From contig CBDCWI010000002.1 in assembly GCA_965223325.1 (NCBI GenBank), positions 2,048,001 to 2,112,000 on the forward strand: a stretch of DNA of 64,000 nucleotides, written 5' to 3'. Under the pieces are notes generated by a model. That model was not told where the DNA came from. It did not search any database and saw only the letters and a list, made by a program, of their open reading frames with translations. How positions within the stretch are numbered: the stretch's first letter is position 1; every line of letters begins with the position of its first letter. Below, piece after piece: positions 52,205-55,838 of this stretch. This stretch comes from Candidatus Multivoradales bacterium. GTDB taxonomy: Bacteria; Acidobacteriota; Thermoanaerobaculia; Multivoradales; Multivoraceae. A program made the position numbers and the translations under genes.

Positions 52205-52311
52205 CACCCAAGGAATCCCAGAACCACCCCAGTCAATCGCCCGGGAAACGCCCGGGAAACGCCCGGCGTGGGCCCGGGAAACGCCCGGGGAACGCCCGGC
52301 GTGGGCCCGGG
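52205..52311. repeat. Intergenic element copy B: 34-bp head plus 7 x GCCCGG(G/C) at 11-bp period
   Basis: Repeats at 52239, 52250, 52261, 52272, 52283, 52294, 52305; head matches 12386-12419; preceded by GTAG. Confidence 0.85.
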
Positions 52312-52641: not shown

Positions 52642-53709
52642 ATGCCGAAGAAGAAGGTCGCCGCCACGGTGCCGCGGCTTGCGCGCACCGCCAACCAGGA
52701 AACAAGGAGCATCGAGGAGCGTTTCGCACTCGAGCTCGAAGCTCTGGCGCCACTCGCTCGAATCGTCGAGGCCGACGTCACCAGCGTTGACGCATTCCTC
52801 GAAACCGCCCACGACGCCGACGCGGTCCTCACGTCGTGGGGCTTCAAGCTCAGCCGCGACGTCCTCGAGCGGCTCGAGAAGTGCTCGGTGATTGGGGTGG
52901 GCAGTGTTGGCGTCGACATGGTGGACGTCGACGCGGCCACCGACCTGGGGATCGTGGTGACCAACGTCCCTGATGTCTTTATCGAGGAAGTCGCCGACCA
53001 CACGATGGCACTGCTGCTTGCCCTGGCCCGTCGGGTCAAGCTGATGGACAAACTGGCGCAGGAGGGCGAGTGGTACCAGGGGCGACCGACGCTCGACCAG
53101 GTGCCGCGACTCTTCGGCCAAACGCTCGGTTTGATTGCCTACGGCAACGTCGCGCGCGCCGTTGCTCGTCGTGCTCGTGGTTTCGGGCTGCGGATCGTGG
53201 CGCACGACCCCTACCTCTCCGAACTCACCATGACGACCGACGGCGTCGAGCCTGTGTCTTTGCCCGAGTTGCTCGAGCGCGCGGACTACATTTCGATGCA
53301 CGCGCTGCTCAACAACGAAACTCGCCACCTGCTCGGGGAGAAGGAGTTCGAATTGATGAAAGAAGGCGCGGCGCTCATCAACTGCGGTCGCGGCCCGACC
53401 ATCGATGAGCAGGCGATGATCGCGGCACTCGACAGCGGTCGCCTGGCGGGAGCGGCGCTCGACGTGCTCGAGCAAGAACCGCCCGACCCGCAGAACCCGT
53501 TGCTCGGCCGCAACAACGTCGTGCTCACACCACACGTCGCCTCGGCGACTACCCGCATGCGTCCCGAGGTCAGGCGGCGCGTCGGTCGCGAGGTTGCCCT
53601 CGTACTGAAAGGTCGCTGGCCGCGCAGTCCGGTCAACCCCACCGTCCTGCCGCGCACTCCGTTGGTCCGCTGGCAGCCGCACTCGATGGAGCGCGGCCCC
53701 AATCGCTAG
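52642..53709 (+). CDS. D-isomer-specific 2-hydroxyacid dehydrogenase (CtBP-like)
   Basis: VTNVPD...EEVADH, LGLIAYGNVA, INCGRG, LDVLEQEP, TPHVA. Confidence 0.93.
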   Translation: MPKKKVAATVPRLARTANQETRSIEERFALELEALAPLARIVEADVTSVDAFLETAHDADAVLTSWGFKLSRDVLERLEKCSVIGVGSVGVDMVDVDAATDLGIVVTNVPDVFIEEVADHTMALLLALARRVKLMDKLAQEGEWYQGRPTLDQVPRLFGQTLGLIAYGNVARAVARRARGFGLRIVAHDPYLSELTMTTDGVEPVSLPELLERADYISMHALLNNETRHLLGEKEFELMKEGAALINCGRGPTIDEQAMIAALDSGRLAGAALDVLEQEPPDPQNPLLGRNNVVLTPHVASATTRMRPEVRRRVGREVALVLKGRWPRSPVNPTVLPRTPLVRWQPHSMERGPNR

Positions 53710-53766
53710 CGGGGCTCGTGATTTGCGCTGCTCGGTTGGAGGTCGTGGTTTGGTAGGCGGTGCTGG

Positions 53767-55200
53767 TTGATGTGCTGTGTCGAGGATGCGATAGGTCGTT
53801 TATCACGAGCCCCGCTAGCATCACCTTTGCCGCGCAAGCGTTTCGTAACGCGACCGATTTCTAGCGATCTCGCTTGGCAGGAACGACCCCGAACTGCAGT
53901 GACCCGTCGCGCGCGGCGGATTCGTGCCTTCGATGGAAAGGAGTTACCGAGGAGCCTGCAGGATGGGAGCTGCGCTACGAGCTGCGGCCTCGAAAGCCGC
54001 TTCCCACGAACTCCGCTCGCATCACACTTGCCGCGCAAGCCTTTCGTAACGCGGCCGATTTCTAGCGATCTCGCTTGGCAGGAACGACCCCGAACTGCAG
54101 TGACCCGTCGCGCGCGGCGGATTCGTGCCTTCGATGGAAAGGGGTTACCGAGGAGCCTGCAGGATGGGAGCTGCGCTACGAGCTGCGGCCTCGAAAGCCG
54201 TAACCCACGAACTCCGCTCGCATCACACTTGCCGCGCAAGCCTTTCGTGACGCGGCCGATTTCTAGCGATCTCGCTTGGCAGGAACGACCCCGAACTGCA
54301 GTGACCCGTCGCGCGCGGCGGATTCGTGCCTTCGATGGAAAGGGGCTCCCGAGGAGCCTGCAGGATGGGAGCTGCGCTACGAGCTGCGGCCTCGAAAGCC
54401 GTAACCCACGAACTCCGCTCGCATCACACTTACCCCGCAAGCCTTTCGTAACGCGGCCGATTTCTAGCGATCTCGCTTGGCAGGAACGACCCCGAACTGC
54501 AGTGACCCGTCGCGCGCGGCGGATTCGTGCCTTCGATGGAAAGGGGCTCCCGAGGAGCCTGCAGGATGGAAGCTGCGCTACGAGCTGCGGTCTCGAAAGC
54601 CGTAACCCACGAACTCCGCTCGCATCACACTTACCGCGCAAGCCTTTCGTAACGCGGCCGATTTCTAGCGATCTCGCTTGGCAGGAACGACCCCAAACTG
54701 CAGTGACCCGTCGCGCGCGGCGGATTCGTGCCTTCGATGGAAAGGGGCTCCCGAGGAGCCTGCAGGATGGAAGCTGCGCTATGGACTGCGGCCTCGAAAG
54801 CCGCTTCCCACGAACTCCGCTCGCATCACACTTGCCGCGCTATCGCCACGTGACGCGGCCGATTGCCAGCGATCTCGCCTGGCAGGAGCGATCCCGAACT
54901 GCAGTGACCCGTCGCGCGCGGCGGATTCGTGCCTTCGATGGAAAGGGGCTCCCGAGGAGCCTGCAGGATGGAGGCTGCGCTATGGACTGCGGCCTCGAAA
55001 GCCGCTTCCCACGAACTCCGCTCGCATCACACTTGCCGCGCTATCGCCACGTGACGCGGCCGTTTTCTAGCGATCTCGCTTGGCAGGAACGACCCCGAAC
55101 TGCAGTGACCCGTCGCGCGCGGCGGATTCGTGATTCCGATGGAAGGGGGCTCCCGAGGAGCCTGCAGGATGGGAGCTGGGCGGTAGGGGTGTTTCGTTGA
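53767..55200 (+). other. Open frame through the array (7 x 67-aa repeat); coding status doubtful
   Basis: Uninterrupted 477-codon frame; TGA overlaps the TTG of the next gene; Arg-rich with atypical codons and no recognisable domain. Confidence 0.3.
53804..55178. repeat. Tandem array of about 6.8 x 201-bp units
   Basis: Equivalent GA(A/G)CGA site at 53881, 54082, 54283, 54484, 54685, 54886, 55087: exact 201-bp period with no indels; no unique spacers. Confidence 0.97.
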
Positions 55201-55838
55201 GCGCAGCTGCCTTTCTAGGCTTCCTGGGTGCGAGTCTCGCCATCGCCCTTTCGCCAGGGCCGAGCTGGTTCTACGTCATGGCGGCGACGCTTGCCAACGG
55301 GCGGCGCGGCGGACGCCTGGCGACGTTCGGCAACGCAGTCGGCATTCTCGTTCATGTCGTCGCCGTCGCAACCGGCATCGCCGCCCTCTTGCAGGTCTAC
55401 CCGGCGGCGTTTCAGGCCCTTAAGTGGGCCGGCGTTGCCTTTCTGGGTTGGCTCGGCCTCCGCACCTTCATGCAACCGCCGGTCGAGGTCGACCTCGACG
55501 AAGCCGACGTCGGACGCGTCGGTGAGAAAAGCGGCGCAGGCATCTTTCGCGACGGGGTGCTGATGGCGGTTCTCAACCCCAAAATCGCTGTCTTGATGCT
55601 CGCCCTCCTGCCACAGTTCGTCGACTTCGACTCCTGGGCGCTTCCCCAGATTGCAACGCTCGGCACGATTCACGTTCTAGTCGCGAGTATCACCCTGACG
55701 ATCGTCGCGACCTTCACCGTCGCCATCGAACAGCGCCTGCGCGACTCACCGGCCTGGGCCCGCGCCCTCCAGTGGACGACAGGAGCGGCGCTCCTCGGTT
55801 TCGCCATTGCACTCGCGCTCCTCGGCACCTCGCTCTGA
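55197..55838 (+). CDS. LysE/RhtB family translocator
   Basis: LSPGP, GRRGG, LKWAG..FL.WLG, FRDG...LNPK, LPQFV. Confidence 0.93.
   Translation: MSAAAFLGFLGASLAIALSPGPSWFYVMAATLANGRRGGRLATFGNAVGILVHVVAVATGIAALLQVYPAAFQALKWAGVAFLGWLGLRTFMQPPVEVDLDEADVGRVGEKSGAGIFRDGVLMAVLNPKIAVLMLALLPQFVDFDSWALPQIATLGTIHVLVASITLTIVATFTVAIEQRLRDSPAWARALQWTTGAALLGFAIALALLGTSL

Follow-up and report, generated by a model that had tools for sequence, protein, structure and literature searches.

What are seven units of 201 nt, set at exact intervals, doing between a dehydrogenase gene and a translocator gene of an acidobacterium? The array in question lies at positions 53804-55178 of the stretch of DNA analyzed here (64,000 nt of Candidatus Multivoradales bacterium, contig CBDCWI010000002.1, positions 2,048,001 to 2,112,000; hereafter the window), and a first-pass annotation of this sequence had proposed it as a structured, amplified and possibly stand-alone system. 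We have found that it does not stand alone, the 201-nt unit being a truncated copy of an element that is dispersed over 67 loci of the same genome. In our opinion the array most probably arose when a single truncated copy was amplified in tandem at this site, a copy of a non-coding and non-autonomous mobile repeat element specific to the lineage.

A repeat family dispersed over the genome

The periodicity first described for the array, exact and free of indels, was recovered both by Tandem Repeats Finder (period 201, 6.8 copies, 95% matches, 0% indels, score 2323) and by a repeat search, which placed seven copies at intervals of exactly 201 nt (identities to copy 1 of 96, 95, 94, 91, 89 and 61%). 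The block variants are also there in the sequence: TATCGCCAC marks copies 6-7 and ATGGAC copies 5-6. What repeats is the whole unit, with no unique spacers, between flanks that encode the dehydrogenase and a LysE-type protein, and the statement that this is not a CRISPR array holds; short repeats (about 23-50 bp), unique spacers and nearby cas genes would have been expected, and CRISPR is ruled out.

One unit of the window, searched against its own genome (G000, 6.69 Mb in two contigs, C1 and C2), gave weaker matches in many other tandem arrays. Tandem Repeats Finder identified 68 non-overlapping arrays with a period of at least 100 in the whole genome, 40 of which form a single BLAST cluster with periods of 128-386. 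Iterated nhmmer searches extended the family to 171 copies of a core of ~120 nt at 67 intergenic loci; tandem arrays account for about 40 of these and single copies for the remainder, so that a unit unique to this locus, the case in which the first-pass annotation would have seen a neutral duplication, is not what the genome contains. No overlap with any called gene was found at 63 of the 67 loci (gene calls come from a crude custom caller, with ORFs, i.e., open reading frames, of at least 90 aa and codon log-odds). The element is co-oriented with its upstream gene, save at the loci adjoining intron ORFs (see below), and at about 30 loci the first core begins 109-118 nt past the upstream stop.

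Units are 95-100% identical inside an array and only ~70-75% identical between arrays. In most other arrays the unit includes a near-identical copy of a leader sequence, unlike that of the window, and the left edge of the duplicated segment falls up to 17 nt to either side of a GTGGT motif (within 3 nt of it in 10 of 22 cases). Since these breakpoints differ from one array to another, the arrays must be independent local duplications. An amplified and homogenized non-coding element, as originally suggested, is thus what the data describe. Another 28 long-period arrays of the genome fall outside the BLAST cluster of the family, for example C1:444079-446238 (period 468), C2:2321555-2322733 (period 183) and C2:486494-487467 (period 168); some of them may be protein repeats or further repeat families.

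Anatomy of the element and covariation of its stems

The anatomy of the element was read at 37-39 loci. A complete copy in G000 has ~250-300 nt and follows a constant order: the gene end, (C)TAG, 7-9 variable bases, CGTGGT, a G/T-rich leader of ~75 nt, TACCACG, the variable bases again as their reverse complement, CTA(G), a gap of two or three bases, TCAC, a helix P1 (consensus UGCGGCGC with GCGCCGCG) that closes a conserved core of ~85 nt, and a tail (GGATTCGTGCCTTCGATGGAAC...) of another ~30 nt. In some intact copies the tail closes with CTAG. The two stretches that embrace the leader form an outer stem (P0) of ~18 bp, perfectly complementary, within which the TAG lies, and whose conserved parts are CTAG on the outer side and GTGGT/ACCAC on the inner side.

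The pairing in these stems is real. In the alignment of P0 (32 loci, 17 pairs) 96.3% of 541 cells are paired, 13 of the 17 pairs have changed on both sides and 104 cells are compensated, giving a covariation of 0.521 vs 0.132 in shuffled alignments (none of the 500 reached it); sliding the partner columns gave no more than 0.095. In P1 and the beginning of P2 pairing reaches 99.1%, both sides have changed in 4 of the 9 pairs, and the covariation is 0.154 vs 0.031. These figures support the first description of the element as structured, and the stems are almost without G-U (G-T) intermediates. Beyond P1 and the start of P2, no helix inside the core had alignment support in 37 modules (RNAalifold and averaged pair probabilities), and the helices P3 and P4 that had been drawn by hand were dropped.

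The arm TAGCGAGGGGCG(T/C)GGT is common to four loci behind different genes, which indicates that the 5' arm belongs to the element and travels with it; arms derived from the target were rejected on the same observation. A small peptide encoded in the leader was also rejected, as no frame is conserved there (distances modulo 3 of 14/7/6, with frequent stops). Rfam gave 0 matches at E up to 1, both for window positions 53400-55600 and for three other, better-conserved arrays, and the repeat remains nameless in databases, as the first-pass annotation had supposed.

A second subfamily keeps P0 and the core and has TCAC and the 5' side of P1 replaced by a C-run/G-run hairpin (..CTTCTCCCCCC...GGGGGAC..). 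It was seen at G000:C2:1790656, 2887041, 4105035 and 4369711, plus loci matching only positions 12-98 of the nhmmer model, and at C2:3512413 a GTGGT...ACCAC hairpin is followed by the C-run/G-run motif of this subfamily.

A minimal form with fresh copies in a related genome

The unit itself did not turn up in relatives, where the first-pass annotation had advised to look for it: BLAST gave 0 hits in 40 relatives. A covariance model (R1) built from 37 first copies found no match in 58 of 60 relatives and two weak ones in the others (E 0.004 and 0.009), which correspond to a minimal form that keeps P0, TCAC and P1 with a P1 loop of ~10 nt vs ~70. A strict motif had 0 matches in 185,579 species genomes, and its single match in metagenome contigs, within apparent coding sequence, was treated as chance. 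Relaxing the motif gave 54 stretches in the same species genomes, 44 of them in a single metagenome-assembled genome (MAG) of a Thermoanaerobaculia bacterium (G061); the remaining 10 look like chance, and in 150 genomes of the order the relaxed motif was found at most once per genome, equal to the reversed-pattern control.

BLAST raised the number of element matches in G061 to 55. The copies are near-identical, of ~215 nt, or ~270 nt with an optional insert, and are built as CTAG, CGGGCTCGTGGT, leader, TACCACGAGCCCG, CTAG, CCGATCAC and the P1 hairpin, followed by a third domain closed by GGTCGACCAGGCC / GGCCTAGTCGACC, another CTAG and the flank. The left end of the element reads CTAGCGGGCTCG... 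and the right end ...GTCGACCTAG, with copies showing the right end ...CCTAGTCGACCTAG, and the two ends are unrelated to each other. The insertion site is CTAG in 34 of 40 cases, the element being flanked by CTAG on both sides, and several copies stand head-to-tail with one CTAG common to both (junction ..GGCCTAG TCGAC CTAGCGGG..). These features mark a non-autonomous mobile element that was active recently and has CTAG as its target. The closest dehydrogenase in G061 to that of the window is only a 40%-identical paralogue.

Stop codons as probable landing sites

A complete first copy is present at 39 loci of G000. At 31 of them P0 is perfect over 10 nt or more, and at 23 of these 31 the TAG (22 loci) or TAA (one locus) of the arm is the called stop codon of the upstream gene. 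The orthologues of the window dehydrogenase in the relatives G007 (63% identity) and G001 (57%) end in ...MERGPNR/K followed by TAG, with no element behind. The stop is thus shared with these relatives, which means that the element arrived at a pre-existing TAG.

CTAG is 4.5-fold under-represented in G000 (4857 observed vs 22059 expected), and of the 2300 CTAG sites where an insertion would spare genes, 725 (31.5%) are stop codons. The choice of CTAG as target, together with purifying selection, explains much of the stop-codon habit, but not its roughly twofold excess. TAG is the stop in 1582 of 4304 called genes (37%, by the same crude caller), which is high for a genome with 64% GC.

The array in the window

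All features described here are on the plus strand. The upstream gene (52642..53709 in the ORF list) encodes a D-isomer 2-hydroxyacid dehydrogenase (PF02826 199.8 bits, PF00389 83.2 bits), whose stop TAG at 53707-53709 is inside the first arm of P0. This 5' arm (53705..53722; GCTAG, nine variable nt and GTGAT) belongs to an 18-nt perfect inverted repeat and occurs once in the window, at the head of the array. It is followed by the G/T-rich leader enclosed by P0 (53723..53801), semi-conserved across loci in alignments of 37 and 32 loci and not repeated within the array, and by the 3' arm of copy 1 (53802..53819). Copy 1 had been described as eroded at its 5' edge; the edge does differ, yet it is not eroded, as every base of 53802-53819 pairs with 53705-53722. 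In later copies the 3' arm has diverged, and copy 1 alone retains the match.

The whole array (53804..55178, period 201) thus repeats a unit made of 3' arm, core, tail and a locus-specific linker of ~60-80 nt, without the leader. The seven matches of R1, from 53795 to 55151, are the only ones in the 64-kb window. The first core module (3' arm, TCAC, P1 and tail) is at 53795..53945 (127.7 bits, E 5.3e-29), with TCAC at 53821-53824 and a P1 helix, placed by motif position and P1 covariation, that pairs 53829-53834 with 53912-53917. The others are at 53996..54146 (108.9 bits), 54197..54347 (102.9 bits), 54398..54548 (87.3 bits), 54599..54749 (94.8 bits), 54800..54950 (104.2 bits; here a block variant replaces CAAGC and the following bases) and 55001..55151 (97.1 bits), and the array ends 27 nt after the last. 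The downstream gene, for a LysE-type translocator (55197..55838 in the ORF list, PF01810 96.9 bits), is outside the element.

Contigs from public DNA data (four runs of three samples, one study) agree at every base with the two flanks and with several internal pieces specific to particular variants. These contigs end at 53883 and 55149, and the copy number of the array thus rests on the assembly.

Between a transporter gene and the dehydrogenase, positions 52238-52311 hold an unrelated tandem repeat with an 11-nt unit, CGCCCGGGAAA (5.6 copies, also seen with period 33). A run of the CCCGGGAAACGCCCGGGAAA type is also inserted within one core copy elsewhere (G000:C1:422012-422189), and this 11-nt repeat may be another small mobile repeat.

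A group II intron that homes into the core

The core is in turn the target of another mobile element. G000 contains 14 full-length copies, 99.9-100% identical, of a group II intron of 1.9 kb (RF02005, group-II-D1D4-6, 180.6 bits; RVT_1 133.9 bits; one copy is at C2:592872-594784, L026 873-2782). Thirteen of them lie antisense to the element and interrupt the core at a single bond, which is in the 5' strand of P1. The single exception lies outside any core module (C2:2349729-2351639). The equivalent bond in copy 1 of the window is 53834|53835; the window array has no intron. The intron protein has a reverse transcriptase (RT) domain with no endonuclease domain detected. The 5' end of the intron reads GATACG; the usual consensus for group II introns is GUGYG. 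Ribozyme domains, an ORF for the RT and identical copies at a single target position, i.e., what defines a mobile group II intron, are all present, and we conclude that an active group II intron is a parasite of the element, with the core as its homing site. The earlier remark that no RT gene is adjacent is accurate for the window array, but elsewhere in the genome an RT-bearing intron homes into the very same core.

Candidate enzymes and the case against mobility

Several observations weigh against a mobile element as we propose it, the first being that searches for Y1, Y2 and IntI enzymes tied no transposase or recombinase to it. Genes matching the Y1 HUH domain (PF01797) number 28 in G000, 0 in G061, 6 in G001 and 13 in G007; they are absent from the genome with the freshest copies and present in G001 and G007, where there is no element. 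Hairpins of the P0 type were found in G000 only at element or intron loci, and no Y1 gene is flanked by the element. Only a fragment of 36 positions represents the Y2/IS91 enzymes in G000, and relatives without the element are rich in Y2 genes. G000 has the gene of a true integron integrase (TIGR02249, 422.7 bits vs a cut-off of 265, G000:C2:3807261-3808190), as do G061 and the element-free G001 and G003. The whole element has no terminal inverted repeats, no gene (cargo) was found between its ends in any copy of G061 or G000, no polymorphism of filled vs empty sites was seen within a species, and there is no replication-strand bias, 35 of 67 loci being co-oriented with the direction inferred from GC skew.

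The sites and the arrays themselves supply further objections. In-frame look-alikes of stop codons are found at only 9 of 40 sites in G061. In G000, on the other hand, the share of stop codons (at least 59-74%) is about twice the 31.5% predicted by the CTAG census, and this excess indicates that something beyond target choice, selection or function, acts in this genome; the counts of stop codons and of overlaps rest on a crude gene caller. CTAG stands at unit junctions inside two arrays of G000 (C1:774475 and C2:1081692) of roughly 30, which means that most arrays grew otherwise than by repeated self-insertion.

Some of these genes deserve a note of their own. The integrase gene adjoins a tRNA-Sec gene and an array with a period of 134 bp (the region is G000:C2:3806467-3808190; L027 3468-5191), each unit of which repeats the 3' end of the tRNA-Sec gene; these units look like stacked attachment sites of an integrative element. 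The ORFs with a Y1 HUH domain have roughly 170-410 aa and many are clustered within ~30 kb of contig ends (G000:C2:4455510-4486968 and G000:C1:2126128-2143849). Along contig C1 the cumulative GC skew runs monotonically from end to end; taken with the Y1 clusters, this hints that the replicon may be linear or have an unusual end.

How the arrays may have formed

The element is probably selfish DNA. Landing at CTAG is observed for its minimal form in G061, and we infer it for G000. An enzyme acting in trans would insert the element at CTAG; insertions inside genes would be lost, NNC-TAG stops would make up a large share of the tolerated sites, and it is at such stops that older copies would preferentially survive. 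The terminal CTAG of the element itself might then seed head-to-tail pairs. Where copies adjoin one another, or replication stalls at the hairpins, arrays may expand and be homogenized through unequal exchange or slippage, and this would explain the high identity within arrays against the low identity between them, as well as the varying unit boundaries. The lack of G-T or G-U intermediates in the stems suggests that the hairpins act or are maintained at the level of DNA, for example by template switching between the arms. PMC7202029 describes template switching between the arms of quasi-palindromes as a known mutational route.

A bolder version would make the family an undescribed class of structure-guided mobile DNA, with neither inverted termini nor cargo. 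Its three stem-closed domains would be recognized by shape, its stems would drift in sequence while staying complementary, its CTAG end would recreate the target and so seed arrays, copies would be retained at TAG stops in this genome, with the stop brought into an 18-bp stem, and the partner enzyme would be of a kind not yet linked to such elements. We regard this version as doubtful.

Among the alternatives, the one that survives best is that of a cis-acting RNA device kept by the host at the 3' end of transcripts, in which transcription of the upstream gene would continue into the element and P0 would lock the upstream UAG stop in an 18-bp stem. It might be an RNase III site, a barrier to exonucleases or a means of coupling translation termination to the fate of the RNA; extra cores would strengthen the effect, and mobility would be ancestral, the present copies having been domesticated. 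The constant orientation relative to the upstream gene, the narrow distance from the stop to the first module and the presence of the stop in the stem at 23 of 31 loci, where tolerated CTAG sites would predict 31.5%, are all as expected for such a device. The same can be said of the pairing of P0 and P1, kept while the sequence is replaced, of a core ~70-75% conserved between loci whose arm sequences are saturated, and of a MAG copy in whose P0 a single G-T wobble fits the sense strand. The sense strand of the core also folds slightly better (in 26 of 37 modules, mean -45.2 vs -41.1 kcal/mol). However, this folding barely beats that of shuffled sequences (mean z -0.89, and -0.59 for the antisense strand), the 201-nt unit folded as single-stranded DNA does no better than shuffles (z 0.05 and 0.25), and the internal helices had no alignment support. 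Helices of RNA with almost no G-U intermediates would be unusual, Rfam recognized nothing, and the 9 plausible stops among 40 copies of G061 do not fit a device built around a stop codon. On balance we consider the RNA device unlikely.

Folded single-strand recombination sites for a tyrosine recombinase, of the integron attC or Xer type, are a second alternative. In this scheme each unit would be a very small cassette with nothing in it, cut out as a circle and put back in, and CTAG would be the crossover core. An integron integrase is indeed encoded both here and in G061, the stems are defined by structure rather than sequence, and the head-to-tail junction of G061 copies is an imperfect palindrome around a short spacer. 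Moreover, the group II intron is antisense to the element, and introns of the IIC-attC lineage likewise sit antisense in attC sites. PMC3001079 describes this lineage as inserting into a site. Against this, the integrase gene is about 1.7 Mb from the window and is also found in element-free genomes (G001, G003), the loci are dispersed rather than gathered in one cassette array, and the units have no ORFs. In an attC site the hairpin is imperfect, bases bulge from it and AAC...GTT boxes stand at the bottom of the stem, but P0 is a perfect stem of 17-18 bp without bulged bases, and the order AAC...GTT fits neither orientation. With a perfect stem, 67 dispersed loci devoid of ORFs and a distant intI, an assignment to integron attC sites or to clusters of attC sites lacking integrases (CALIN) was rejected, and we give the whole explanation very little credit.

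Finally, a neutral one-off duplication, an assembly artifact or a repeat-protein gene (201 being 3 x 67, and repeat protein having been among the first suggestions) is effectively excluded: ORFs of 477 aa (plus strand) and 311 aa (minus strand) do run through the array and short-read contigs fail to span it, but the core occurs 171 times at 67 loci, variant-specific internal contigs agree in four runs without a difference, the periods of the family (128-386) are not multiples of 3, the leader keeps no frame, and the translations are strings rich in Arg, Gly and Cys, typical of GC-rich non-coding DNA.

Comparison with known repeats

We return to the reading as a mobile repeat and compare the element with the known types. 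Miniature inverted-repeat and palindrome-associated transposable elements (MITEs and PATEs) are non-autonomous derivatives of insertion sequences (ISs). The element resembles them in being short, non-coding, multi-copy and intergenic, often just behind genes, with long hairpins, a fixed short target (CTAG) on both flanks and a recent near-identical burst in one genome. Bacterial examples can be found in PMC3189936, PMC5896051 and PMC6382973. Unlike MITEs, it has asymmetric ends in place of terminal inverted repeats, three stem-closed domains, an outer stem whose sequence varies by locus yet stays complementary, and about 40 of 67 loci in tandem arrays; no parent IS was found. For a MITE of the DDE type, the CTAG on both flanks looks like a target duplication, while the ends are unrelated and only the P0 sub-domain has inverted arms. 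With PATEs of the IS200/IS605 type it shares the lack of terminal inverted repeats and the fixed tetranucleotide (CTAG at 34 of 40 sites in G061), but not the replication-orientation bias (35 of 67) nor a TnpA partner, no Y1 enzyme being associated with it.

Repetitive extragenic palindromic (REP) sequences and their paired form, REPINs, go with RAYT transposases (REP-associated tyrosine transposases, of the Y1 HUH type), and the BIME-2 (bacterial interspersed mosaic element) arrays of Escherichia coli belong to the same group. The element too lies outside genes and forms hairpins, its arm is headed by (G/C)TAG, and its two inverted arms, ~75 nt apart, recall a REPIN. It is also hit by other mobile elements and can be amplified in tandem, as REPs can. 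In a table of PMC1525189, REPs of Pseudomonas putida are targeted by IS elements and by a group II intron (2 of 9). The element differs in being 5-10 times longer, in its conserved non-palindromic core and in arms that are not conserved in sequence. Membership of the REP/REPIN-RAYT system was rejected, as no Y1 gene is flanked by repeats and G061 has 0 Y1 genes despite its 55 element matches.

Rolling-circle elements (IS91/ISCR, Helitron-like) have tetranucleotide ends, a 3' hairpin and head-to-tail arrays that take up flanking DNA. By these properties the element is similar, with no terminal inverted repeats, CTAG ends, a hairpin near the 3' end and head-to-tail arrays. Tandem arrays of Helentrons are mentioned in PMC4067079. 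The Y2 fragment of G000, the abundance of Y2 genes in element-free relatives and the lack of strand bias set it apart. As to the intron, bacterial group IIC introns have terminator hairpins and attC sites as targets (PMC1702495 and PMC3001079). Here too an intron with only an RT domain detected in its protein homes into an intergenic repeat that has structure, but this intron enters one strand of P1 rather than the sequence after a hairpin, and is antisense to the neighboring gene. The mycobacterial interspersed repetitive units (MIRUs), of 40-100 bp, are thought to carry small ORFs that overlap neighboring genes. They resemble the element as tandem units of variable copy number between genes of the same strand, abutting the upstream stop; the element has no conserved frame, and its units are of 128-386 bp with covarying stems.

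Full-text literature searches (arrays in Acidobacteria, bacterial MITEs that target CTAG at stops, and introns in repeats) found no description of this family. We see in it an undescribed variant of MITE- or REP-like repeats with several unusual traits, and not a new defense or RNA system.

What the family means

About 40 puzzling long-period arrays of one acidobacterial genome are thus reduced to a single family, and long ORFs running across such arrays should not be annotated as genes. The family shows a route by which an element that seeks CTAG settles on stop codons. It offers a natural case of stems that change their sequence and keep their complementarity, useful for the study of template-switch repair and of the growth of arrays driven by repeats, and it reveals where an active group II intron naturally homes. 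Should the enzyme that moves the element prove new, bacterial mobile DNA would gain a class.

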